From Trichodelitschia bisporula (taxonomy: Eukaryota), in the NCBI GenBank assembly GCA_010356995.1, contig ML996688.1, forward strand, positions 1,586,579-1,650,578: a stretch of 64,000 nucleotides of DNA. The letters are read 5' to 3'. Shown in pieces: positions 5,412 through 55,407 of the stretch. The position numbers and the translations under genes are program-made. The notes below the pieces were generated by a model, which was not told the origin of the DNA, searched no databases, and saw nothing but the letters and a program-made list of their open reading frames with translations. Positions within the stretch are counted from its first letter, which is position 1; each line of letters starts with the position of its first letter.

Positions 5412-7237
5412 GTTGGCGGGCTGGTGGGTTAGTTGGCAGGCTGAGTGAGGCTGTGGCTGGCTGGTTGGTGATGTTGTTGTTCGAGTATCTTAGCTGTTCT
5501 TTTATATCCCACGATGAGAGGTGTGCCGCAGTGTTGTTAAAGATGGCGACATGGACATGAGGATCTGAGGGCGTGCTACACCAAGTCGAATGCTACCTAC
5601 TCACCAGTGTCTCCATCCTAAACGGTATGCTGAAGTCCGACTCTCGTGTGGCATAGCTACGAGCTTCCTTTCGCATCTTGCCTTCCAGCTATTTTGGATC
5701 GAGGAGATCCAAACCAAGCAGACAGGAGCTAGGCGCGGAGGAGTATCTCAGCCATAGTTACCGAACCGGTAGGTGCAGAAGCTCTTTGACCCCACTGGAA
5801 ATGTCGACATCGGAGCAGATCCCGCGCCGCAATATCTGCCCTGCCAAAATTGGCATGAACGAAAGCAGAGGAGTTGCCCGCCGGCCATGGTCGCCGATCT
5901 ACCCAGGCAATAGAGCACATGGTGTGCACACTGCTATGTATGTCTGCTGAACCATAGACAAGGAATTCACAATCCAGGCTACGGTACTGGTACATCCTTT
6001 AGCACGCGTGGTTCTTGACCGAATTTGGAAAGTAGGTCTCTGTAGATTAATCTAGATTAATCGGCCAGGGTGAGGAGCAGGGCGCCCGTTGCTAAGCTTC
6101 GAACCGGAAGGTCAATCTGGTACAGATGGACTAACGGGGACGTAACAAGGTTAAGCGTGCATATTTTCGCTTCCAAGATCCGGGTGAAGGCGTGGGAGAT
6201 GCAAGTCCACTGTCCAGCATGCGCGGCAGATGTAGCCGAGAACACGCGTGCCTTCATCGGCCAGACCGTCATCCCACGGTGCCTACAGCTGCCTGATATC
6301 ATCGAAGGATGTTGAGCTATTTGCGGAGACTACGCCGTAGACTGTGCCGCAATGGCGGAGGCCAGGTTATTGTGCGTATGACAAACGGGAGCTGGGTAGA
6401 AGTCTTGAGGGACAACGGATGAAGGAAACCCAGTTCAATGTATCAGTCTGTCCCTCACAAAGCTTAGTGATACTCATCTCCGCAGTGAATGCATCTCTAG
6501 ATGTAGTTGGAATAGTAAAATGACATTCACTCAGCGTTTGAGACGGCATGCTTCGCGGACTAGTTCTAGGAATGTGAGCAGCAGCACCCGGCATCAGTGT
6601 ACAAATGCAGCTGGAAGCTTATACAACCGACATTTTATCGTCTAGGATGAAAGGCAGGATTGATCGAAGTGCGGCACAGCCAGTCCAAGGTCGCGAGGAG
6701 AGTTGATGATAAGCAGTTTCATGGTGTTGAGGTTCGCGGGCCACCCAAAGATGTCGCGGTCGCCCATGTCACCAAGACGGCCCGGCAGAGAGGCAGCGAC
6801 TTTTTGTATGACACTTGGTCCGCCAGGCACCAGCCACCAGCCACATAATAGCCGCAGCATATGTGGCAGTGCGGTGACAACGCGCCAGCCTCATCTTTTT
6901 GCACCAGTCACCGCCAGCCACCACACTCACAGGGGAAGCGTGTCATTCACCAACCCTCCCAGCTCAGTTCTCCATAAAAGAACAGGAACTCTACCTCCAC
7001 GCCCACCGCTCTTCAACTCCCCCGGCAAAGGCCATGAATCTTTCGTAGGCGATTTTGAACCTCAATTCGACCATCAAGCCCAGCACTGACGACAGCTTAG
7101 CACGTAAGACCGGCACCCAGCCCGAGGCGACAGATATCAATCCCTTCCCACTCGCGTAGCTCCTCAGGAACCCATTCGTTTCTCCAGATCAGGAATCCCC
7201 CTCCCTCCAGCCCTACCCGGATCCTCTATCAACCATC

Positions 7238-8875
7238 ATGGCCCCCACCTTCTCCGGCAAATCCCCCGAATCCTACGCCACCGGCCTCCGCCGCAAAGAC
7301 TCCAAAAACGCCCTAAACACCTGCCACGGAACCACCTCTACGGGACGTGCCTGCCGCCGCGCCCTCGCCGGCGCCGGCAACCGACCGCAAGGCGCCTTCC
7401 TCGTCCCGGCTAACGACGACCCGGCCGTCTTCTACTGCTGGCAGCACAAGGACCAGGCCGAGCCCGTCGGCGCGGGCTCCGAAGTCTATCCGCTGGATGG
7501 TTGGGAGAGCATCGAGTCCACGTTTCGGCATTTAGGCCTTGATGATGGCCCCCTTGAGGAGGCGATGCGGAACGTCAGGCTCGGGAGCGTGATCGAGGAC
7601 GACTCGGAATCGGAAAGCGACGACGAGCCGATCCCCTCACGCCCGCACACCCCGAATCCCCACCCAGCAACCCCTTCCCCCGCCGCACGCACCCCCCGGA
7701 CCGAACCGAGCCAACAGCGGACCGAACCCCGGACCGAAAAACCCCGCCGCAAACCCGTCCCCTCCCCGCCCAACCCTCCCCGAGGCCGGCGCAAATCCAC
7801 CCCCTCCCCCCCAAAATCCCCCCTCCTCTCCCTCCTCACCGGCTGCTTCGGCTCCGCCCCGCCACCCCCGCGGAGCAAATCCCGGAACCCGCACCACCGC
7901 CGCCGGTCAAGCGCCCACCGCCCCTCCGAGCCGGAAAAGCACTTAAGTCCGCGCCCCGCGCCCGCGCCCGAGACCGAGAAACCCCTAACCCCGCCCTCGC
8001 GCTCGCGCCCGTCGCCGCGCGCTTCCCCGCGCGCCAGTCAGACCTCCGGCCTGCCCTCGGGCCGGAAGGCGAGTCGCCCGTCTAGCTCGAGGCATGACTC
8101 CGCGCACCCAAGCCCGGAGAGCACGCCCCCGCACTCAGCGCCCCGGCCTGCGGCGTTCAAGGCGCATACCAGCCCCAGCGCGAGTCCGCCGCATTTAAGG
8201 CCCGGGGGGGAGTGGGGAAGTCTCGCGCCAACCCACCCGTCCAACTCGCCGTCAACACCATCACGCCCACCCGCAGCACGCATTGTCACCGCCCCAGCCT
8301 CTACTCTCGAACCGCCGCCGCTGCCACCGAACGCGTCTCTCGGGGAGGTAGAGGTGTATGCGAAGCTGCGGAAGGTGATGGACGACCCGCCAACTGCGGC
8401 TGATGGACCGGGGTATATTTACGTATTCTACCACGCCGAAGACGGTATCAATGCGGAGATGCTTTCGCCGTATAACGCGCGGGTGGCGCCTAGGCGGGAG
8501 AGCAGCGGAGGCGGGGTGAAAAAAATGGCGTTGAAGGTGGGGCGGGCGACGAATGTGCATGCGCGGATGGGGCAGTGGAATCGGCAGTGTGGGGCGAAGG
8601 TTGCGTTGTGGAGGAGTTATCCCGCGGTTGAGGGGGGGGTGGGGATGAGGGTGGGTTGTGTTAAGAAGGTGGAGCGGTTGGTGCATTTGCACCTTGAGAT
8701 GTTGGGGAGGAGGGTGAGTAGGGTTTGTGGGTGTGGGACGGTGCATCAAGAGTGGTTTGAGGTTGAGGCGTCGAGGGAGGGGCTGGGGGAGGTGGAGGAG
8801 GTTATTCGTAGGTGGGTTGATTGGGCGGAGACGATGTATGGAGGGCGAGGGGGTAGAGGGGGGGTTGGTATGTAG
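7238..8875 (+). CDS. T5orf172/MUG113 (GIY-YIG-like) domain protein with N-terminal Cys/His motif and Pro/Ser-rich linker
   Basis: 545-aa ORF. N-terminal CHGTTSTGRACRR..YCWQH; C-terminal GYIYVF, LKVGRATNVHARMGQW, VERLVHLHL, CGCGTVHQEWF. Confidence 0.8.
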   Translation: MAPTFSGKSPESYATGLRRKDSKNALNTCHGTTSTGRACRRALAGAGNRPQGAFLVPANDDPAVFYCWQHKDQAEPVGAGSEVYPLDGWESIESTFRHLGLDDGPLEEAMRNVRLGSVIEDDSESESDDEPIPSRPHTPNPHPATPSPAARTPRTEPSQQRTEPRTEKPRRKPVPSPPNPPRGRRKSTPSPPKSPLLSLLTGCFGSAPPPPRSKSRNPHHRRRSSAHRPSEPEKHLSPRPAPAPETEKPLTPPSRSRPSPRASPRASQTSGLPSGRKASRPSSSRHDSAHPSPESTPPHSAPRPAAFKAHTSPSASPPHLRPGGEWGSLAPTHPSNSPSTPSRPPAARIVTAPASTLEPPPLPPNASLGEVEVYAKLRKVMDDPPTAADGPGYIYVFYHAEDGINAEMLSPYNARVAPRRESSGGGVKKMALKVGRATNVHARMGQWNRQCGAKVALWRSYPAVEGGVGMRVGCVKKVERLVHLHLEMLGRRVSRVCGCGTVHQEWFEVEASREGLGEVEEVIRRWVDWAETMYGGRGGRGGVGM

Positions 8876-41350: not shown

Positions 41351-43790
41351 ATGTATTCAAGCTCTCACGCCTCAATGCCTCCGCCACAGCAGCGACAGGT
41401 CGCGCCTGAAACCTTTTTATTAGACCAGGAAGCTCAGCGGAGTTTGCCCCAGGAGGCCGTCATCGCTTTGCGCCAGGTTGAAAATCGTGAGTTGCTTTGC
41501 CACCCAGTTGTTGGATGCCTCGCGCTTCCAACATCAACATCCAACAACAACAACTAACCCCACCACAGTCAAGTACTTTCTCATCTCTGCGCCCGTGGAC
41601 TGGAGTCCCGAGCAATGCATCCGTCGCTTTCTTCTGCCGACTGGCGAATACGTTTCCTGCGTGCTATGGTTCGTGATCTATGTCGCGCTTCTTTTTTGGC
41701 TTGCAATTAACCAAGCTTCAGGAATAATCTCTTTCATATCTCTGGTACCGACATCGTGCGATGCCTGTCCTTTCGCTTCCAGGCCTTTGGCCGCCCAGTC
41801 AAGAACTCGAAGAAATTCGAGGAGGGCATTTTCTCGGATCTGCGCAACCTGAAGTCAGGCACCGACGCGTCTCTTGAGGAGCCGAAGAGCCCGTTCTTGG
41901 ACTTCTTGTACAAGAACAACTGCATTCGCACCCAGAAGAAGCAAAAGGTCTTCTATTGGTACAGCGTGCCGCATGATCGCCTGTTCCTTGATGCCCTGGA
42001 GCGCGACCTGAAGAGGGAGAAGATGGGCCAGGAGGCGACTACTATGGCCGTCAGCGAGCCCGCACTCTCGTTCGAATTCGACTCATCGCAATCACTGTTC
42101 GAGCAGCTCACCAAGGCCCAGCAGACCAACTCGTCGTCTTTCACTTCTAACGTGCAGAGCTACACGCACGCATCCCCGGTCGAGCAGATGGCCCCGCCGC
42201 AAATGATGGCCCAGCCTATGGCACCAGTTGTCGTTGACGATTCGCTGAACCAGATCGGGAACTACCCGCAGATGCAACAAATTCCCACGTCGATTCCTGG
42301 CGTCTCCAACGCTGTGGTGGCGAAGAGCCGCGAACGCGATTTTGGCCAGCCGCAATTTGACCGCAATGGCATCCCTTTGGGACAGCTGCACCAGCGCGCG
42401 AACTCGATGCCCGCTTTCATGGAATGCTCGCCTGCGCCGTCACTGGCTCTGTCGCACTATGATGACTACAGCAACCCGCGCATGTCTTTTGAGCCGCTCA
42501 CTCCTCCTCAACATGCTTTCAGCCTGGGCCCTGAGCCGTCGTACATCCCCAATGAAGACACTGGCCTCTATTCGGCGATTCCCGACCTCAACGTGTCTGC
42601 GACCTTCAACCCGATGATGCAACTGCCGCCTTCCAGCTTTGGTCCGCAATTTTCCGTGACTCGCACCTTCCCTCCTCCCAATGTCTACTCCGTCATTGAA
42701 GGGTCTCCCACCTACAAGCAGCGCCGGAGACGATCTTCCATCACCACCAACGTGGGGGTTGTCACTGCCAGCGGAGCCGTTCAGGGTGTGCAGCGCACCA
42801 GCGATCTCCGGAGATCAATGTCCAGCTCTGTTGTCCCTGTTCAGGAGGTTGACGAGAACGAGCACGACTCACCGCAGAGCTCGAATAACTACGCGCCTGT
42901 GCAGAAGACTGAGCCCTTCCCCGATCTGTCCAGGCACGGAACGCCTCTGGCGACTGTTGAGGACAGCCCCATCCAGCAGCCGATGACGATCATGCCGCAG
43001 GACGAGCTTTCGCAATTTACCAACGGTGATTTTGCAGAGGCTCCTCTGCAGCATAGCGCTTTGGCTCGCACCGCTGGTGGCGTATTTCGGCGCGCGCGCA
43101 GCGCTACGATGATGGAGCTGGGTCCCTACCCGCAGAAGTCACATTCGTGCCCGATTCCTACTTGCGGAAGGTTGTTCAAGAGATTAGAGCACTTGAAGAG
43201 GTAAGCGCTTGTTTCCGATCCCCAAGATGCCTTGTGGAGATTAGATTGTTTCACAATTGCATCTCAGCCAAAAATAGAAGCTGACTCCCGGCGCTTAGGC
43301 ACGTGCGCACGCACACTCAGGAACGTCCATACGTCTGCCAACTCTGCAGCAAGGCCTTTTCGCGCTCTGACAACCTCGCACAGTATGTTTCACGTGTACG
43401 CGCCGTCACTTGGATTGTCGCTAATCATTTCTTAGACATAAGCGCACGCATGAGCAGCAGCAGAATGGCGAGCAAGTCAACTTTAGCGAAGAGGATTTTG
43501 AGAACGAGGATGACCATATCCCCGCTCTGGACGAAACGTCGCCGGGCTCCGAAGAACACTCGTACCTCGGCAATGGCATGCCGCCTTCGACTTCGGACCT
43601 GTCGGCGTCGTTGAACTCCCTCTCGGGTGGTAACATGTCCGAGCACCCGTACCTCCACGGAAACAACTCCACTCCCGACATGTCTACGGGAATGGGCAGC
43701 ATGAATACAGGCACGAGCAACATGAACGGCCCGAGCATGAACGGCACTAGCATGGGACCCCCTCCCATGGTCGCGGCACATAACTACTAG
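41351..43790 (+). CDS. STE12: Ste12/SteA transcription factor (STE homeodomain plus two C2H2 fingers)
   Basis: [97 protein letters not shown]. Introns 41487-41568, 41669-41721, 43201-43298, 43383-43435. Confidence 0.97.
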
Positions 43791-45810
43791 GCCTCATCTC
43801 GTCTATCCTAATATCTCCCGGGTTTAGCCTTGGTCTTTTTGGCGCAAAAGGCATGGACGCACCCTGTGAGCCGGAGTCTTGATTCTTATCATGAACGACC
43901 GATAGATTTCTCTGTGTTTATATTGTCATCTACTTTTTGGTTTGATGTGCTTGCATCCGCTTTCGGGGCAAGAGGTCTTTTTGCGGAGTTTGGGAGAAAT
44001 CTGCTGGCGCGTAGACATGACTTGGACGATCCTTTGGTGTGTGCAGCTCACATGCTCCCTGCAACCTTTTCTTTTATCCACACTGCTTCGGTGTTTTGGC
44101 GGTGCTTGGTCGGTCGAAGGGGGTCTGGGGTCGGGGGTGCGGATAGGAACTGGGTGAAAAAGCGCTCGGATGTTTGTCTTGCTCTGCTCCGGTGCAGGTG
44201 GATGGGGCGGGCTGGACGGAAGGTGTTCGGTTACAAGATGGGATCGTGGTTCCACGGATGATATCCCGTGATGGGGCGATGGGTGTACCGTACTTTTGCT
44301 GCATGGCCCGCATGGCGGTGTTTGCCTTGTGCCCGGTGAAGGGCGATGTGGGCTGTATTTGTTTCTCTGCGCTGGCTTCTTGTCATGTAGACCGTGTGTG
44401 GCCTGTAACATAGATAACTATGTCTTGATGATGTTGGGAATACGTGATGGTGCTTGATGCTCGGGACGACAGCCTTTCCCCCCCCCCCCCGAGGGGGGGT
44501 TTTTAGGCAAGCCTGCCGTGCCTGCCTGCTTCGATGTAGTACTGGACTGGACGTCCTCTACCGGAAGGAAAGGTAGGTTCTTGACGTGTTCCGCGGTTGT
44601 TCTACTGACGACGTGATCTAGCATGCTGCACAGCACCTTCCTTCTGGAAAACCGCGTTCGGGAAAGCGCCATCCTGGCCCTCCGGAATCAGAGACTAGAA
44701 CTAGACGCCAAGTTCCCCGCACGACACTTCATCCGTGACCTCACCCCCACCATCCAACATCGCCCCGGCCTGTCGTCCGTCATCCCCAGAATCCCTTCAT
44801 GTTGCTCTACGCAACGCTCTCTGCGCAACTACCGGCTTGTTAAGAGACCTTTCCCTGTCTGATCGACACTACTGCGAATGACGAATGCCATTTGGTAACG
44901 CAGTCGAAGGATTTCCGGAAGGCCTTTCAGCACATGCGCTTCCGCCGCGCGCTGCTATACTCAGACGTCCCCTTCTTTGGGTGCAGCCCCACCATCGACA
45001 AGGACACTGCGATAGCGGAGAGAAGAATATGGGATACAGGAACGAGAGCTTATCTGACATGCGGACGTCGATTGATCGCCCAGAGATCTCACTTGCATTC
45101 AATCCTATCCCCAAGAAGGGGATCCTATACGAGGGCGAAAAGGTTCCAGAGCATAGAACTAGTCCGGCCTTTTGCGCTTTTCTTGGGGTTTGGATGAGAT
45201 GTGAGAGAGATCTCGGGTGATCAGTGGACGTCCTCATGACTGTTAACCTCTCGTTTTGGAACTCCCTGTTTTTCTTTACCGCTGTCTTGGTGTTCTTATC
45301 GGTGGTGGCGCTGCATTCTAAGAATGGGACGCCACGAGCTCTGGCTCTCGCTGCCGGCGTGTCTTCGCTTCATCTGGCGAGCGCTCGAACGCGGCGCAGC
45401 CCACCTCTACCGCGACTGCCCAGAGATCCAGGCAATAGTCCAGGAGGGGATCGCCCATCTGGCCACTGAGAATTCAAAGTTTGGATTATCGGTGGGCAGA
45501 TACGCAATTCCGTCCTGGATTATCGCCTGGATCTCTGGGCAGTCGTGGTAGAGGTGAGCTATGCCGCATCTGAGCGCTCGCCAGAATCAGCGTTGCAAAC
45601 TGCTCTATCAAGACGGCTCATGACTTGAAACACACAGCGGTCTTATCTCTCGCGGCCTGCGTGTTCTCCGCTTTGTCTTCTGCTGTAGGCGAACTCACCT
45701 CACTTCTACTCTGGAAGCTCCGTTGATACAAATATAAACGAGTGGTGCTTTGGGTTCTGGCATACAACAGCGTCACGCCTCTGCAAATATCGTTCCGGAA
45801 ACCAAAAAGA

Positions 45811-46500
45811 ATGGACGAGAGACACTTATATATGGCTGAACTGACCGAATCGTTTTCCAGGTTACAGTTAGGCCAAGACTTAAAGCCGATGCTTACGCGG
45901 GAACGAGCCAAGGAACTATACTACATGTTCATCTTCCAACAGTTCCCCGAAAGAAGGCGCTACGGCCGCGATAATGACGGGCCTCTTGTGGATATGTGGA
46001 CAGAATGGGCCTTGAGCATGCGGTCCCAACCCGAGGCCCAGGACCTCTGGCGCTATATCACCGGTGAGGCTCCCAAGCTGCTCGACTTGAATTATGCGAA
46101 CCACTGGCTCCTTGACCGGGCGCTCAAAACGTGGTTGCAGAGACAATTCTCCCTGGTGGACTTGGCCGAGATTTACGAGTATGAAGCTCAGGTTCAAAAT
46201 GAGGCTCTGTTTCAAACTGGGCTCAGGCCTGAAAAAGAGTCGGCGCCGCATTTGTGGAAGATGATGGAGCTCTGGGCGACGCGGAAGATAGCCAAAACGG
46301 CCCTGAGTGCACAAGGGGTTGGTATTCCTGTGGTCTTGGGCTGGAAGATTCATGGGTGGCCCTTGGGCTCGACTGCGGGTTCTTGCGCCGCCTTTCAAGC
46401 GGAAGCATACCTTGGTAATCTCTTGATGCAAATATGCGATTTCCCTCTCCAAGTAACTGTCCAGCTGATGGACGGCGGCAGCCTCATCGTCGGAAAGTAG
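45811..46500 (+). CDS. Orphan paralogue family member A (229 aa), copia-Gag N-terminal-like
   Basis: TATA-like ATATAAA near 45732. WTEWALSMRSQPEAQDLWRYITGE..LLDRALKTWL..LAEIYEY..SAPHLWKMMELWA is shared with downstream copies. Confidence 0.7.
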   Translation: MDERHLYMAELTESFSRLQLGQDLKPMLTRERAKELYYMFIFQQFPERRRYGRDNDGPLVDMWTEWALSMRSQPEAQDLWRYITGEAPKLLDLNYANHWLLDRALKTWLQRQFSLVDLAEIYEYEAQVQNEALFQTGLRPEKESAPHLWKMMELWATRKIAKTALSAQGVGIPVVLGWKIHGWPLGSTAGSCAAFQAEAYLGNLLMQICDFPLQVTVQLMDGGSLIVGK

Positions 46501-46785
46501 GTCAGCTGTTGCTCTCTGAATGACCCTTCATTCAAGGAAGTCCTGAATGCCATGCTCTTGATTGGAGAGCGGGTATCAGCACATAATTGAGTGGGTGGAT
46601 GAACTGCTGTGTAACGGCATCCGCCGATGAGCTGACTCGCTCGTCTTCTTTAAAAAGGCGAGGTATCTTGCTCGTTGACTTTCAGTTTCACTGAAGCACC
46701 TTCTCAAGTTTTGAATGGCTGGTATATATCTCTCCTGTTATGATGGCATGTTAGCTAAAGGCGCGCAGTCAACAACATCCGGTAC

Positions 46786-47022
46786 TTGCACTGCGGCCAT
46801 CGTGTGGATCGGAAACCCAAGGCCTTCCTGGTAAAGCACTGCACCACTGCCGCTATGGTCGAAATTGAACGCTTTGTGAAGGGTATTGAGAATCCATTGT
46901 CTGAAGATAAGAACTTCTGGGTTGGTTCGACGCCGCGCTGGTGGGCGATGGCAGAGCGTTGGGCGGCAGATAACAAGTCCAAGGCTGTCGGCCTTGCCGA
47001 GGAAATGGGGTACATGGATTGA
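46786..47022 (+). pseudogene. 5'-truncated family member B
   Basis: DRKPKAFLVKHCTTAAMVEIERF..WVGSTPRWWAMAERWA aligns to the C-terminal half of member E. An in-frame TAA lies just upstream and the N-terminal half is absent. Confidence 0.65.
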
Positions 47023-47325
47023 GCTTCTGGAAGTAGTGTTCATGTCTTGCCTTAGCAGTCTTGAGAACGCAACCCTCCGATAGCCGAGGAAGACCCTGAA
47101 TTGATATCGCTTTGAATTTCCGCAAACCATGTGCCCATCGCAAACCCGCAGCGGATGAATGGAACCCTTCCTCTTCCCCGTGAAAGAATCCAGACCGGGC
47201 CATCTTGCTAGTCGGATCTTGTGTCCAGCAACCTTTTCCCCTAGCGCTCTGGTAGGTGCGTCTTCCAACATCCAATATTTATAGTTGCCATATGGGTTCA
47301 CTGGTCATCATTCTCCACGATCATC

Positions 47326-47398
47326 CAACCCTCTCCTCAGCCTCCACTCCTCAAACCCACCTTCAACCCTCTCCTCTGCCTCCACTCCTCAAACCCAC
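47326..47398 (+). repeat. Tandem duplication of a 35-nt unit (period 38, 1 mismatch) upstream of member C
   Basis: caaccctctcctcagcctccactcctcaaacccac / caaccctctcctctgcctccactcctcaaacccac. Confidence 0.85.
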
Positions 47399-47444
47399 AC
47401 ACCGCAACCACCTCCTCCCCATCCACACCACCCCCGCCCCCAAA

Positions 47445-47858
47445 ATGGTCTTCCTATCCGACCTCCAAATGGACATGATCCACGCCGCCCTCTACTCAGG
47501 ACAACAAATCGCCCTCCCCGGCGTGCTCTACTCCCCCACCGAAGGCAACCTGTCAACCTCCTCCCCGCGCTACCAAGACTGGCCCGCCTGGTCCGCCTTC
47601 GTGCGCAACCTAGTCTCCGCGCTCGACATGGGCAAATCTCTGCCCACTAGCGCAGAGCAGAGCGGGTCCGCATACCACGACGCCAACCGCACCCTCAAGG
47701 AGATCATGGCGCAGAACTGCTCGCCCACCGCGGTGGCTGAGATCGAAGCTTTCTCCGCGAGGGCGGCGGAGGAGGTCGAGGTTGTTGGCGGCGCGACGCA
47801 TTTTTGGAAGTGTGCTGAGCTGTGGGCTGCGAGTCGGGAGGGGGAGGTTACGGCTTAG
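47445..47858 (+). CDS. Orphan paralogue family member C (137 aa)
   Basis: CAAAATG start context. IALPGVLYSPTE..DWPAWSAFVR..NRTLKEIMAQNCSPTAVAEIEAF..ATHFWKCAELWA. Confidence 0.7.
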   Translation: MVFLSDLQMDMIHAALYSGQQIALPGVLYSPTEGNLSTSSPRYQDWPAWSAFVRNLVSALDMGKSLPTSAEQSGSAYHDANRTLKEIMAQNCSPTAVAEIEAFSARAAEEVEVVGGATHFWKCAELWAASREGEVTA

Positions 47859-48598
47859 GGGTTACGCTGAGGGTTAAGGTTGAAGGGTCTGGATTGAATT
47901 TGTGGGGAACGGGGGGGGGGTAATGGAAGGGTCCACGTGGTGGGGAATTGTTCTTTTCGGTGTTCGCTTTCGGCAGGCGTGGTTACGAGTATCCGTGGGG
48001 ATCGAGTTTGATTGCCTCGGAGTTTTTCGTCTTGCGTGTTGTATTTAGTAGGATAATGTAATGACTCTGGCGGATATGTATGAATATCGTAGCATGAATG
48101 GTGAATTTGCTCCCCGCTTCCACTCGGGACTGTCCTGTGGCACGAGAAGCATCAGTGATGCCCGATTCGGCAATCTGGAGAACAGCAGGTGTATCGATTA
48201 GCTTGCCCAAGTGACTGGACAACGCATTTGAGTTCGAACTGTCTGTTATCCGTATCTGCCTTGCTGGATGTTCCAAGGTCAACTTGCGTTAAATTCAGCC
48301 AATTCGCATCGTGCTTGCACCTCCATCTCAGCGGTAGAAACCTTGCGACGGACCGAAAAGGCTGAAGCCCCCTTGTCACTTGTGGCTTGGCAGCCTGTTA
48401 TGCTTTACGACAATCACCTTCCATGTTGAGGGGAGCTCTGTTGGGCTCTACAGACCATTTTCTCCAACCCTCCAGGTGCGGGGTCGTCTTAGGCAGGCGC
48501 TGGGTATAAGTATCGTGCTGCTGCTGCCTCTGGATCATTAATCACTCACCCTCCAAAGTCACCGTCAAATTCCAGAAATCCGACTCGACGCCATTGAG

Positions 48599-49122
48599 AT
48601 GTTTACATACACCCACCAAGAGATCGACGAAGTCTTCCCCTTGAAAGGATTCGAGCCGATCGTCGTTCTCTAATCACCAACTGAGAATGTGGATGAGCTT
48701 CCGCTACTCAAGCGTCCGGACGCACAGTACGTCGAGCGGCCGGTGTGGTCAGTTGTCACGCACTACACTCTCGATATGGTCGACCTGTGGGACTACATTG
48801 ACCACGTAAATTCCCCACTGTGTGTGGACGAGCGTCTTCCGTGCCTTCTTGATCGCGGCATCAAGCTTTGGCTGGCATCCAACTGCACTCCGACTGCCAT
48901 AGTTGAAATCGAAGACTACGCCCAGGATGTATCGTCACGGCGACCAGACGTCAAGAAAACTTGATCGGGTCCGCTTAACACTGGTGGAGGATGTCGAACT
49001 TGTGGGCGAAATGTATTACTTCTACGCCCAAAGATGTTGTCCCTAAGAAAAGTCTCAAGAGAAAGGCGTCGGGGATGGGGCCAGAAGAAGATATGCATCG
49101 TGCAGGACTGAAGCGAAGGTGA
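48599..49122 (+). pseudogene. Family member D, pseudogene (two premature TAA and one frameshift)
   Basis: ATG at 48599; VVL*SPTE (TAA 48671-48673); PVWSVVTHYTLDMVDLWDYI..LDRGIKLWLASNCTPTAIVEIEDYA; 1-nt deletion near 48963; then IGSA*HWWRMSNLWA (TAA 48976-48978). Confidence 0.75.
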
Positions 49123-49442
49123 CTCCAGATTTATGTAATGCGGGACGAAGAAGCGTTTTGGTTGCTTTCATTCGTGGCTTGCTTTTGTTCTTTGTCTTCT
49201 TCACGGATGATTTGTGGATTTCGAACCTTCCCATGAGTGCGCGCGGAGGATGTGAATGTGACGGCTGTATCTTTCTCTCTAGTCTAATGAAGAGATGTCG
49301 TTAGAAACTGAGATGGTTTGGTCGAGCCGACGTCGCATATGCTTATATAAGCTGTCGATCCATGTGCTCCTTCCATCATGCAGAACAGCAGTCCAACATC
49401 AACTCTCATCTCAAACTGCAACCATCTTGCGAATTCCTCAAA

Positions 49443-50090
49443 ATGGGCCTTTCAACAGCCCAACTTGAGAACAGATTCGTTCTTCTGGACAGAATCGCTC
49501 TACCCGGCATTCTCGCCTCCCCCAACGAGGCTACGGGCAGGCCTCAGCTCAAGGTCCACGAAGGCCTTCAACCTCTGGACTGGCCGGTTTGGTCGGCATA
49601 TGTCCGTTACGAACTCGACGTTTTCAACATGTGGGAGTATCTGTCGACTATAAAAAAGGACGAGGTGGCTTTGTTCCAGGGTTCAAATAAGGAACGACAG
49701 TTGGATCGCAGGCTGAAGTTATGGCTGGCTTCCAAGTGTACCCCTACCGCTATGCTTGAGATTGAAGGATTTGCGGAGCAGGTACCGGAAAATCGTAACT
49801 CCTTCACCAGCAAGGTCAAAGCCGGATGGATCGGTTCGGCGCCGCATTGGTGGAAGATGGCGGAGTTGTGGGCTGAGAGTCACAAGGCTGAGATTCAGGC
49901 TGAGAGCGTGAAAGAGGAGAAGAGCGGCCCGAAGGGCGTGGAAGGGGAGAAGGGAAGACTGAAGGAAGATAGTACAGGAGAACGGACCGAGGAAAGTGTA
50001 GGAGACGATACGAAGGGGAGTTCGAAGGTAAAATCACCAGAGACTTTGAGGGCTGAAGCGTGGAGAGCGCGGTACGGGCTCCCGTATTGA
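49443..50090 (+). CDS. Orphan paralogue family member E (215 aa)
   Basis: TATATAA near 49344. IALPGILASPNE..DWPVWSAYVRYELDVFNMWEYL..LDRRLKLWLASKCTPTAMLEIEGFA..WIGSAPHWWKMAELWA; charged tail. Confidence 0.75.
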   Translation: MGLSTAQLENRFVLLDRIALPGILASPNEATGRPQLKVHEGLQPLDWPVWSAYVRYELDVFNMWEYLSTIKKDEVALFQGSNKERQLDRRLKLWLASKCTPTAMLEIEGFAEQVPENRNSFTSKVKAGWIGSAPHWWKMAELWAESHKAEIQAESVKEEKSGPKGVEGEKGRLKEDSTGERTEESVGDDTKGSSKVKSPETLRAEAWRARYGLPY

Positions 50091-51057
50091 AGTCCACTTG
50101 GTATAAGGCGAAGAGGGATATCCAAATTGATCTTGGGCTTTGTATTTAGCTTGGAGTACGCTCGTTGGCTCGATACACTGAGATGAATGTCATAATCAGC
50201 GAGAAAGCATCACATGCTGCTACGCCCCGGATATGTGCCAGAACCGTGGGACACAGTTTCTACCGGTTGCACAGAGTAACGGGAACTTAGCTAAGACACG
50301 TGCAGTGGCAACAAGTACAGACTGAAAGCATTGTAAAAGACGAAGGACAGAAGAGAGGGGAGAGTGGCAGGGCCGCTCGTATCCAAATACACTTGTTGTC
50401 CTGTCCCTGGGTTTCCTTCCATTACTCCCCACAGCCACTTCCCGGTTTAGGATACTCCTTCCAAGAGTACGGCTGCTCCTTTCCTGAGGACACATCAGAG
50501 AGCTTCGAGGATGATATAGTTAATCGCCTACTCGAAGCTTTCGTCTCTAACTAAGTGATCTTCGAGCCCCTGACCTGTCCGATTCTATATGTTGGAGCCA
50601 AGCGTTCACAGTTCAGTTCATCAGCGGCATCAAGTCCAGAAACGAATACCAAGCGAGCAGAGCAGCTTGCATGCTATTCAAGGCCTAGGTACAGTCGCAT
50701 CTTCCACTCCTAGGCGCCAGTTTCGAAAACTCCCCACCTCAGCTCTAAGCAATGTGCCCGAAATTATTGTAAAACACATGCCGCGATCCACTGTGCAGGA
50801 GACATAATCAAGGACAAGGAGGAAATAATAAACTGAAAAAACTGAAAAAACCCGCAAAGACCGACCACACGCCGTGAAAAGATTTCTGCAACCCATTCCG
50901 AATTTCGCCCATACTCGCCACGCCCCCGTTATGATCTTTTAGTTTCCCATGTCATAGAGTACCCCATCCCATTTCGCGAAGTTCATGATTCACACCGGAA
51001 GATGTTTACTTGGCTATGCGGGCAAATGTCAGCGTCATTCTTGATATCAGCGAATAA

Positions 51058-54000
51058 CTAACCTTGAGCAAGTGGAGTTCCAGCGCTGGACACAGGAGCC
51101 GTAGACTGGCCATCGCGAGTAGAAGACCCCCCGTCATCGAAGCCTTGGAGTTCAGGGTAATTCTCCGTCTCCTCGCGGAGGCGCTTCAGCGTTATTTGCT
51201 CCGGAACGTTAGCACAAGATCATACATGAGATTTTTAGCATTTACCTCAATCAGGTTAGCATCCTTGTAGAGAATACTACCGTCCTCGTTGAAGGTACGA
51301 CAGTTATTGCACAGGAGGCCAATGTCAGTCCGGAACTGATAGAGGTTCTGGTACTCCTTCTTGTTGATCTTCTTCTGGATCTGCTTCATGCAAATCGGGT
51401 TCGTGATAATGACGTAATACTCAGGGTAATCATTCTTGTCAGGAAGATCCAAGAAAGGATCAATGATACCACGGTTCGCAAGATCGGGATCCGTAGACTC
51501 CTCCTCCAGATCCAGAAGCGCATCATAGACAGCGTTCAGAATCTTCTGAAGGATTGCACGGTTCGCCGGCGTGAGAGTATCCTTAGCATTGCCTGGACGA
51601 CCACGCTTCTTCGGGGGCGGAGCAACGTCAGCATCAAGCCCCGCCTCCTCAGCCTTGCGCTTCTCGGCCTTGGGCTTGCGGCCCCGCTTCTTAGGCATAG
51701 GCGACTCAGAGCTGTCGCGCGACGGACGCGGCGATTCCGCGATGATCTGGTCGGTGCGCGTTTTCTTGTCGCGGTTCTTCTCGCGGCGGCCCTGCTTGGC
51801 CTCCTTGCGGGCAATGGCCTCCTCGATGGTATCTTCGTCGTTGTCGACAGCATCGAGCCACTGCTCCTCAGTGAGGCCGTCGTCGTAACGAACGCGCGTC
51901 CGCTCGCGAGCACCACGACCGACGGGCTCTTCCACCTCTTCCACGACAGGGTTGTCCTCCATCAAGTAGAGCTCTGGCAATTCTTCGTCGCAGAGCAGGC
52001 GCGGGTACTTCTTGCCAGGTCCATACTTGGCGTTCGTGATGCGATCTTGATCCATCTGCTGGAAGAGCTTGAGTTCGTCCTCGGAACGCATCATGATCAC
52101 GTTGAGATCATCATCGTCCTGCTCTTCCTGTTCCAGGGTCTCCGCCGCTTCAGCAGACTCCAACATGACCCTCAACATGGCATCACGCTCTTCGTTTGTC
52201 GACTTGTTATCGAATTTACCGGCCTGAATAACCTTGCCATCCATGTCGAGCTTGAAGTTCGCGCGCTCGAGAATCTTCTCTTCAACTGAGTTGGTGGTGA
52301 TCAAGCGCAGAATGCGGACTTCGTTCTTCTGACCGATACGATGTGCACGATCCTGGGCCTGCAAATCTTGATGAGGATTCCAGTCGGAGTCGTAAATGAT
52401 GACAGTATCCGCAGTTTGAAGATTGAGACCCAAGCCACCAGCACGAGTGGAGAGCAAGAAGCAGAAGTACTCCGAGTTCGGAGCATTGAACAGCCTGAGC
52501 AGCTCAGAACGATCGTCTGCTTTCGTCGACCCATCCAGCCGAAGGTACTTGATGTTACGAAGGCGCAAGAAATCTTCCATGATGTTCATAATCTGCGTCA
52601 TCTGGAAGAACATGAGGACACGATGGTTGGTGGCCTGGAACTTGGGAAGGATCCGGTCAAGAAGTTCGAACTTGCCGGAGGTGCGCCACAAGAGGTCGTT
52701 GGTGCTCCGGGTGGGGTTCATCTGATCTTCGACCTCTTCGAACACGAAGGGATGGTTGCAAAGCTTGCGTAACTGCATAAGCATGTTGCTCAACCCACGC
52801 AGACCGGTCTTGCCTCCCTTGCCGTCGCTGACGGTGAGGCGGTTGTGGTTGACCAGCTGTTTGTACAGTCTAGCCTGCAGAGCAGAGAAGCTGCACTTGA
52901 TAACGCGCTCAGTCTTGTCAGGAAGATCCTTCTCGACATCCCTCTTGAGGCGACGGAGCAAGAATGGCCGAAGAACCTTATGAAGACGACGAATGACGAG
53001 CAACTGCTCTTCTTCAGTGAGCTCCATCTTGTCTTGTCCACCGGTATTGGCAAAGGGCGTGTTGAACCACTCGTCAAAAGACTTGACGGACTTGAAGATG
53101 TTCGGGAGAACGAAATTGAGAAGCGCCCACAGCTCAGGCAGGTTGTTCTGCAGCGGCGTACCAGTCAAGATAAGACGGTAGCGAGTGTTGTAGTACTGCG
53201 TGATGGTGCTGCTCAACTTGGAGCCGGCATTCTTCATGCGGTGACCTTCATCGACGATCATGTGGACCCACTTGATCTTGCTGAGAATCGGGCGATCCTT
53301 GATGACGAATTCATACGTTGTAAGTAGGACCTGGAACGAACCATAGCGAATCTGGTTCTGCTGCTGCTTGCGCTGGTTCGGCGGGCCCTTGTAAACAATC
53401 TTCTGCACGCTCGGCGCCCACTTATCAAACTCACTATTCCAGTTCGTCAAGGTGCTGAGAGGAACAATGACCAGGAAGGGGCCATGTTCCTGCTTCTCCG
53501 CAATGAGATAGGTGATTAAGCTGATGGTCTGAATAGTCTTTCCGAGACCCATTTCGTCGGCCAAGATACCATTCAGGTTGTTGTTGTACAGCGAAATCAT
53601 CCACTGAAGACCCTTGAGCTGGTATTCCTTGAGAGTACCGCCAACGAGATTGTCAGACTGCTTATAGATTTCCTCCTTTTTGCGATGCGCGACTTCGTAG
53701 TAGTCAACGCGACGAGCGCGACGCTCTTCGTCATCTTCATCCTCATCGTAGGAATCGCTCTCGTCGGAGGACTCGTCAACCGTATCCCTACCACCGTACC
53801 GCTTGACAGCGCTGCGCTGTTGCTCGCGAACGGAGGCCGCAAGTTGGTTCAAGAAGCCATCGGTTTGCTTGAGCAAGTGGGAGATACGCGTATCCTTTGC
53901 TTGACCGAGCAGCTTCAGGTAGGTCTCTTCATCGTTGGCCTTCAAAGCCTGAAGACGCTGCCTAGCCGTGCGCTCGACACGCTTCTGCTCTTCCTTCTCG

Positions 54001-55407
54001 AGATGGTTGTGCTGAGCCATGGCAAGGCGACCAAGCTTTTGAGCCCGCTGTTGTTTAGCATGGGCCTCTTGACGAATCTCCTCTCCGTGTTTGATGACAG
54101 AGTTGAGGAAGTCGGTATGTTTCTTCTTCTCCTGAGACTCCCGAGCATCGCGCTGCTGCTTCTCCAGTTTCTCAGTGACGCGTGCTTCACGGAACGACAT
54201 CTTTTTCACGCGACGGTATTGCGCCCGGTTCGATGTGATAGCCAAGTTGTCCGCGTTGAGCATTTCGCGGCTCAGGTGTTGGCGCAACTGGCGCTGCTTC
54301 TGAAGGAGGCAGAGCTGCTTGTATTCAATCAGGGCCTTACGCTTGATCGAGTCATCCGGGTCCTTGAAGAGTATGCTACGGGCGTTCCAGGTGGCGATAT
54401 TGGCATGTGTCTGTTCGAGCTCCTGCTTCCGCGCCATGATACGATTGTACGCAATCATCTCGCGTTCTTCCTGCATCCGCTTGACATCGATTCCTTGAGG
54501 AATTATGCTCGGAATCTGTGGGCGAAGGATGCGAAGAGCATGATCACTGTAGCCTATTTCGCGCCTCACGTGCGAGTAGGGGTCGGTGAAGGACTTGAGA
54601 TATTCATGTGCAGCAGTACGCTTCGATGGTTCGGAGGAGGGCTCCACGCTCGCCGATTCCTTCACAGGTGGAGCATTCTCGATGCCATGTTCCTCAGTAG
54701 CCAGGACTTGCTTCGTCATGCTCGCCTGTTTGGCCTGAGAGAAAGTGTGCAGTGTTTGCTGGATTGACGCAGGCAACGGCAAGTTCCTAGTGAGTTGGCG
54801 AAACGCACCCAACTGGATTTTAAACAATGCAAGCTGTTCCTTGGTGAATGAGGAAGCAGGAGCCTTTTGACCAGAGGGGGCCATCTTGCTACGAGGAGAA
54901 GGGCCCGCAGCAACGGATGGAGCAGCCGAGCCGTTTGTCGCGGCTGTAGGCAGGTTCTCGGATCCAGACGCGGATGGCATTACAGTGCCGTTGGTCAGAG
55001 TTTGCGGAGCAACACCGTTCGCTTGATGCTGTTCTGGCAGCTGGACCTGCAACTGAGCCTGTTGCATGTTATCCTGCTGCTGACCTTGCTGGTGTGCAAG
55101 AGCTTGCTGCTGCTGCTGTTGCATCATCTTCTGCTTCTGCCACTGATTTTGCTGGTGGACAGCTTGGAGGAGGTTGCGGGCCTTGATGAATTCCGGGTCA
55201 TCTTCACGGACATTCTGAGTCTTCATCTGTTGGTACTTCTAGATATGGATGTCAGTCACTGGATACGAGACAGCGGGTGGTGGAAGGGAAAGATATGTGG
55301 GGGAGATATACAATGTATGTTTGTTTGACCATGTCCCTGGTGAGATTTGGTGGAATCACGCCTGAAGCCTGCGCCTGGATGTGGCCAGGCTGCTGAAGAG
55401 TCGCCAT
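51058..55407 (-). CDS. STH1: SWI/SNF-RSC chromatin-remodelling ATPase (Sth1/Snf21/Snf2): QLQ, HSA, SNF2_N, helicase C, SnAC, bromodomain
   Basis: GILADEMGLGKTIQTI, DEGH, LTGTPLQN, STRAGGLGLN, QAQDRAHRIGQ, bromodomain DYPEYY..NCRTFNEDGS. Introns 55239-55311 and 51199-51245. Confidence 0.95.

Follow-up and report, generated by a model that had tools for sequence, protein, structure and literature searches.

A tandem array of five diverged paralogous gene copies, here named A to E, occupies positions 45811-50090 of a 64,000-nucleotide stretch of contig ML996688.1 from the fungus Trichodelitschia bisporula (assembly GCA_010356995.1, positions 1,586,579 to 1,650,578; this whole stretch is hereafter the window, and all coordinates refer to it). 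The explanation that we favour, with modest confidence, is that the core of approximately 120 residues in the array proteins descends from the N-terminal domain (NTD) of the Ty1/copia Gag capsid, and that the array is an old and partly decaying family. We infer the capsid-NTD fold and ancestry from support that is weak but convergent: individually weak signals from different methods all name the family that had been proposed beforehand, in the original prediction made by inspection of the letters. The proteins are small, tryptophan-rich and, in the models, all-helical, and the family arose by old local duplication.

The paralogy of the copies is clear at the protein level. In a tblastn comparison of the translated pieces against the whole window, significant matches are found at these five loci only, all in the plus orientation. 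Copy E as a query recovers C at E values of 1e-19/1e-20, D at 1.5e-17 (in two frames), B at 2.8e-10 and A at 1.3e-6, and the five co-oriented paralogues are thus present where they were originally placed (E values from 1e-20 to 1e-6), with no further loci in the window. Protein identity to E is 27% for A and 38% for C, and reaches 39% and 36% for the pieces of D and B, respectively. The shared motif SAPHxWKMxELWA is encoded by a family of 38-nt DNA units, with five copies displaying 63-87% identity to the unit of copy A. In codon alignments, made at the protein level and containing the paralogues only, the third codon position has the lowest identity in 10/10 paralogue pairs (for instance, 0.49/0.61/0.36 in the pair E-D), and the proportion of synonymous differences (pS) lies between 0.60 and 0.80 across pairs. 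The corrected number of synonymous substitutions per site (dS) is undefined in four pairs and equals 1.2-2.1 in the remaining six. The ratio of non-synonymous to synonymous substitution (dN/dS), which had been suggested as a check on the copies, is 0.35-0.53 in these six pairs, a rough figure at saturated sites. Given the saturation at synonymous sites and the weaker conservation of third positions, the duplications are old and the copies have diverged as coding sequence, in agreement with the old duplication proposed for the array.

The N-terminal region of Ty1/copia Gag is marked by the motif NYxxWxxxMxxxLxxxxLWxxVxG. For a reference set, metagenome contigs were scanned with a degenerate pattern for NYxxWxxxMxxxLxxxxLW, which returned 122 stretches; in 23 of them the motif is followed by an open reading frame (ORF) of 150 aa or more, and among these 23/23 match Retrotran_gag_2 (E values from 2.4e-4 to 2.2e-38) and 20/23 match DUF4219. 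A scan of viral contigs with the Gag motif gave nine loci, none of them a copia Gag. Aligned by hhalign to the 23 Gags, the family displays one local match, which places residues 46-73 of copy E (DWPVWSAYVRYELDVFNMWEYLSTIKKD) on the DUF4219-type motif at the Gag N-terminus. The match has a score of 27.7 (P = 1e-3, probability 21%), and none of 150 column shuffles reaches it (mean 10.9, maximum 16.6, with at most one replicate touched by a format error); the N-terminal sub-profiles alone give P = 1.1e-5. A hidden Markov model (HMM) of the Gag N-terminus, used in an unfiltered hmmsearch, assigns 15.4 bits to copy A (E value 0.001 among 2,440 sequences) and 6.0 bits to D; the top score among 694 decoy ORFs taken from elsewhere in the window is 5.7 bits. 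The match of A, the strongest of the copies, spans residues 65-86 at 13.5-15.4 bits. In this alignment the array pattern W-x3-[MVT]-x3-[LVP]-x4-[LM][WG]-x2-[IL] falls on NYxxWxxxMxxxLxxxxLW. The array differs from copia Gag in having no Pfam match, no sequence signal past the first ~28 residues and no N-Y, the two residues being missing in all copies. In sequence, the Gag likeness claimed for the copies may hold for a stretch of ~28 residues in the proposed register, but does not extend to the body of the domain or to Pfam.

Structure comparison may point to the same family. AlphaFold2 models are all-helical for both copy E (predicted local distance difference test, pLDDT, 50.1; predicted template modelling score, pTM, 0.43) and the core of copy A (pLDDT 59.4, pTM 0.42). 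In a VIA-align comparison against 48,161 PDB representatives, the Drosophila copia capsid NTD (8vvw, 8s41) takes ranks 1 and 2 for E and ranks 2 and 4 for the A core. In the models, the all-helical core of ~120 residues aligns collinearly to residues 1-100 of the copia chain, on the N-terminal-domain side of the 184-187-residue chain, and the loosened hhalign alignment (family columns 37-137 against Gag columns 3-98) covers the same span as the structural match. The copia chain comprises an NTD and a C-terminal domain (CTD) according to its authors (10.1101/2024.02.21.581285). AlphaFold2 cannot have memorised these copia capsid structures, because they were released in 2025. Retroelement capsids fill 15 of the 50 top rows for the A core, to be read with the capsid share of the 48,161-member set uncounted. 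This list includes the capsid NTDs of equine infectious anaemia virus (EIAV), N-tropic murine leukaemia virus (N-MLV), RELIK, human immunodeficiency virus 1 (HIV-1), Ty3, Rous sarcoma virus (RSV), human T-lymphotropic virus 1 (HTLV-1) and caprine arthritis encephalitis virus (CAEV), as well as PNMA2 and PEG10. Counting 2x82_A, which we take to be a capsid chain, the share of capsids becomes 16/50. For the E model, PEG10 CA appears at rank 42. The ESM Atlas, which contains E, lists 30 feature neighbours of this copy with scores of 0.81-0.85, below the bar of the tool, among which a DUF4219 cluster is at rank 6, a Retrotran_gag_3/DUF4219 cluster at rank 21 and a Retrotran_gag_2 cluster at rank 29. 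Retrotran_gag_2 clusters also account for 4 of the 10 structure rows listed for E (template modelling score by query 0.36-0.39, residues 7-197).

The five copies differ in integrity, and their transcription is seen in contigs of two runs, X3 and X4, from one sample. These runs are not recorded as RNA and are identified as such by spliced joints alone: their contigs skip GT..AG introns in the flanking STE12-like gene and CT..AC introns in the flanking STH1 gene. Copy A (45811..46500, plus strand) is an intact coding sequence of 229 aa, with the conserved core at residues ~55-170. One intron lies in its 5' untranslated region (45685-45742). Another, which is optional (46415-46481), alters the non-conserved C-terminus, so that the product has either 229 or, with the intron removed, 213 aa; RNA contigs cover 45535-46414 and 45743-46720 with GT..AG joints. 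The region just upstream of A contains an inverted repeat of 113 nt, whose two arms (45366-45478 and 45480-45592) are separated by 1 nt and show 81% complementarity. This repeat might form a hairpin, or it might be a small insert of the foldback type or resembling a miniature inverted-repeat transposable element (MITE). The start of the X4 RNA contig at 45535 falls inside the right arm of this repeat.

Copy B, originally thought to start at 46786, has its ATG at 46715 instead: a 47-nt GT..AG intron (46722-46768) is spliced out in the X3 and X4 RNA contigs (joint 46720/46768, cut +1), and the resulting frame, MAVNNIRY..., ends at 47022 (stop included, plus strand) and encodes 86 aa. This product corresponds to the C-terminal half of the family domain only. 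A and B are both transcribed and spliced. In two runs RNA contigs cover them jointly (45743-47110), and they may have a read-through transcript in common or overlapping transcripts—a contig that spans both does not by itself establish a single transcript. Two antisense ORFs in this region, 45919-46527 and 46741-47304, were rejected as genes, having no Pfam match and facing introns oriented for the plus strand. Copy C (47445..47858, plus strand) is intact, with an ORF of 137 aa when read from this ATG; a longer ORF starts at 47292 and includes a proline-rich repeat, and the protein library contains a form of 173 aa (P0006). The proline-rich stretch upstream of the ATG of C is encoded by three direct repeats of ~35-38 nt (47326-47439; 97% and 66% identity to the first), and P0006 starts within it.

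Copy D (48599..49074, plus strand) is a pseudogene with three lesions. Two are in-frame TAA stops, one at 48671-48673 (occupied by Y in C and by A in E) and the other at 48976-48978 (the place of the P of SAPHWW in E); between them, the A-run near 48953-48961 carries a frameshift. The X3 and X4 contigs leave D (47976-49043) without cover and C little covered, which is not evidence of silence. Copy E (49443..50090, plus strand) is an intact coding sequence of 215 aa without an intron, consisting of a core at residues ~38-160 followed by a K/E-rich tail. It is transcribed: a 716-nt RNA contig (49403-50118) covers it without a joint, and its start codon is the first ATG in this contig, none being present between 49403 and 49443. 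A TATATAA box is located at 49344..49351 on the plus strand, ~55 nt before the contig start at 49403. Several descriptions in the original prediction thus apply to part of the array. The claim of five gene copies holds for A, C and E as intact genes, with B reduced to half a domain and D disabled by two in-frame stops and the frameshift; 'apparently intronless' is correct for E but not for A, with its leader and optional introns, or for B; and the TATA-like element said to precede each copy is canonical only at E, and the strings near A and B fall within intron or coding sequence. The proposed look at RNA, by contrast, supports expression of A, B and E, and the proteins of the array are presumably made.

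No parts of a transposon accompany the array. Direct repeats of at least 50 nt are absent from the whole 64 kb. Of the 171 ORFs in the window with at least 110 aa between stops, three belong to the family and were scanned separately; the remaining 168 contain no Pfam match to reverse transcriptase, RNase H, integrase or protease. The CCHC zinc knuckle pattern does not occur in the six frames of 45500-50300. The absence of these components, including long terminal repeats (LTRs), was correctly noted in the original prediction, and for want of direct repeats of this length, pol matches and CCHC the array is not a transposon insertion. Compared with copia Gag and a complete LTR retrotransposon, it carries no capsid CTD, zinc knuckle, pol domain or flanking LTR. 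Conservation of the core stops ~10-15 residues past ELWA, and the tails differ from copy to copy, so that the NTD would be the only capsid domain represented in the family.

Several results weigh against a capsid origin. None of the five copies matches DUF4219 (PF13961), Retrotran_gag_3 (PF14244) or Retrotran_gag_2 (PF14223) at E values up to 10, and the HMMER check against the Gag models named beforehand thus returned no match; the sole Pfam row for the five pieces is TMCO5, matched by the piece of D with an E value of 0.3. For the part of the domain downstream of the motif, hhalign gives a score of 9.8 (P = 0.5), equalled or bettered by 67 of 150 shuffles, and the Gag-body HMM is negative for E, A, C and B (D not listed). 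On the N-terminal HMM, E and C score just -0.5 and -1.3 bits. The motif test is not independent either, as the hypothesis and the Gag set were both chosen by the same motif. The AlphaFold2 models have low confidence and derive from an input alignment of the five paralogues only, the VIA-align Z values are all at most 5.1, and Foldseek returns no match at E values up to 0.001 for the E model against PDB or for the A core against PDB and BFVD: no capsid appears among the PDB rows, and an HIV-1 Gag fragment appears at BFVD rank 48 with an E value of 6.7. The ESM Atlas yields for A no usable feature match, a model with pTM of 0.23 and unrelated structure rows. The structural check that had been proposed is accordingly split, with VIA-align placing the copia capsid NTD near the top for two low-confidence models and Foldseek finding nothing. 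Several of these results would fit an array encoding lineage-restricted proteins, small and helical, that arose de novo or from a source other than a transposon; the capsid likeness, noticed in a motif before the hypothesis was chosen, would then be a chance product of a tryptophan-rich amphipathic helix motif and a generic helical bundle. We consider this possible, though doubtful. The searches for relatives also speak for it. A HMMER profile search of 1.84 billion representative proteins returns four matches at E values up to 0.001, three of which are A, C and E themselves. The fourth, P0007 (E value 3.1e-8), lies outside the window and was rejected as a relative: it is a repeat protein of 2,956 aa rich in T, S, G and N, whose recurring NQFWKNGN(V/T)W unit gives rise to the seven matching stretches, and we judge this a chance motif match. 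A word-index protein search with E finds only E among 98 candidates, and with the family alignment as the query it finds only E and A among 3,201 candidates (E values up to 10). A sequence profile search of PDB gives only Diaphanous (E value 1.6). The five-copy alignment has no stretch conserved enough for a DNA scan of metagenomes, and the alignment of E, D and C used in its place produced 222 pattern stretches, none confirmed. Against this stands the behaviour of a true copia-type Gag (L020), which as a phmmer query against PDB does not reach the Drosophila copia capsid chains at E values up to 10. Gag bodies therefore diverge past sequence recognition even among real members, and missing sequence similarity is weak evidence against common origin. 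The orphan status of the family also calls for caution, because no close relative has been sequenced and the orthologues of a small protein that evolves fast could escape detection: even for the SNF2 protein of the window, the next-best proteins are just 58-60% identical (residues 100-480).

Another explanation retains the copia origin and denies the function, treating the copies as decayed relics, left by old copia insertions or by a gag-only fragment, that are no longer under selection and whose transcripts are incidental. The three disabling lesions of D and the half domain of B fit such debris, as does the low RNA depth for A and B, to be read with the limitation that contigs cannot rank expression; with no known relative, purifying selection across species cannot be shown. 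However, in three copies frames of 137-229 aa have stayed open despite saturated synonymous sites, and the conservation pattern over codon positions described above is that of coding sequence in every pair. The introns are spliced, and the TATA box of E is correctly placed for its transcript. Neither LTRs nor pol domains are left anywhere in the 64 kb, nor a zinc knuckle pattern in 45500-50300, and the array resides in ordinary gene-dense DNA. We regard functionless debris as quite improbable.

A survey of co-opted gag genes (Wang and Han 2021; PMC8321522) offers the closest comparison for an array of capsid-derived genes. Across ~740 eukaryote families it reports 14 co-option events, three of them fungal and all of the fungal ones single copy; such genes are, by this account, rare. 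The genes of copia origin described there include Crtg12 and Crtg13, from Dothideomycete fungi, and Crtg9, which is tandemly duplicated in plants (PMC8321522). On the capsid reading, the array resembles the Crtg genes in being of a gag-only type, residing in the host genome without LTR or pol and having a proposed copia origin; its host belongs to the same fungal class as those of Crtg12 and Crtg13, and it shares tandem duplication with plant Crtg9. The fungal Crtg genes are reported to be recognisable by sequence and conserved above the family level, and the survey to be based on sequence similarity, with synteny and cross-species selection as criteria (PMC8321522). Against this description, the array differs in having five copies, no detectable relative and a Gag likeness visible by profile and structure only, and the comparison within it is between paralogues alone. 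We found no publication that treats Trichodelitschia together with a retrotransposon.

Gag-derived restriction factors provide a second point of comparison, and Fv1 is a known example. The yeast factors Ty1 p22 and DRT2 are reported to contain the capsid CTD, through which they act, and to have a demonstrated effect on retromobility (PMC4599808, PMC10951436). The array would resemble p22, DRT2 and Fv1 in type, as truncated or domesticated Gag pieces expressed from a host genome, which is the functional model put forward in the original prediction. Any restriction by the array would be of a different mode from that of p22 and DRT2, since it would correspond to the N-terminal domain only.

On the capsid reading, a copia capsid NTD would have been captured, and the capsid CTD, zinc knuckle, pol and LTRs would have been lost. 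The family would then have undergone birth-and-death evolution, leaving A, C and E intact, B cut to half a domain and D dead. By analogy with Gag-derived inhibitors, the products would most likely act through protein-protein contacts of the CA-NTD type, either among themselves or with the Gag of copia elements resident in the genome, and such contacts could disturb the assembly of copia particles. A bolder version, which we hold to be unlikely, takes the array as a set of NTD-only capsid decoys that restrict the copia elements of the same genome by entering or capping the NTD rings of copia particles during assembly, with the turnover of copies as the trace of an arms race. If real, the array represents a novel form of co-opted gag: NTD-only, arranged in tandem with turnover, and invisible to sequence screens. 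True capsid derivation would mean that sequence screens miss captures that are older or evolve faster, that these can be found only by profile and structure methods, and that a lone capsid NTD can be retained and amplified by a host. In that case the locus, where A, C and E are intact next to the halved B and the pseudogene D, would also be a tractable test case for capsid-fragment defence against retrotransposons in non-yeast fungi. Should the likeness be due to chance, the locus is no more than a cluster of orphan genes of the ordinary kind.

The array is placed between two conserved genes, as had been proposed. On the left is a gene for an STE12-like transcription factor (approximately 41424..44431, plus strand), with a Pfam STE match at 3.3e-48, an RNA contig reaching 44431 and four introns seen as GT..AG joints in RNA contigs. 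On the right is a SNF2/STH1 chromatin remodeller gene (approximately 50643..55312, minus strand), with CT..AC joints and Pfam matches to SNF2-rel_dom (2.1e-100), Helicase_C, HSA, SnAC and Bromodomain; its product is 100% identical to library protein P0008. A 32-nt stretch at 50441-50472, between the array and this gene, is also found in DNA and RNA contigs of other records, where the sequence on both sides of the match is unlike that of the window (loose ends in X1 and X3), which points to a short repeated element upstream of STH1. Base composition is even along the window, and the Pfam matches of other ORFs are to ordinary genes, among them MIF4G, subtilase, SDR, cutinase, Skp1, WD40, MFS, NIPA, RAI1 and ribosomal L2. 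One more ORF, of 571 aa (7160-8872, plus strand), has a C-terminal T5orf172/MUG113 domain (4.9e-16 and 6.4e-11), most of its length being without another Pfam match.

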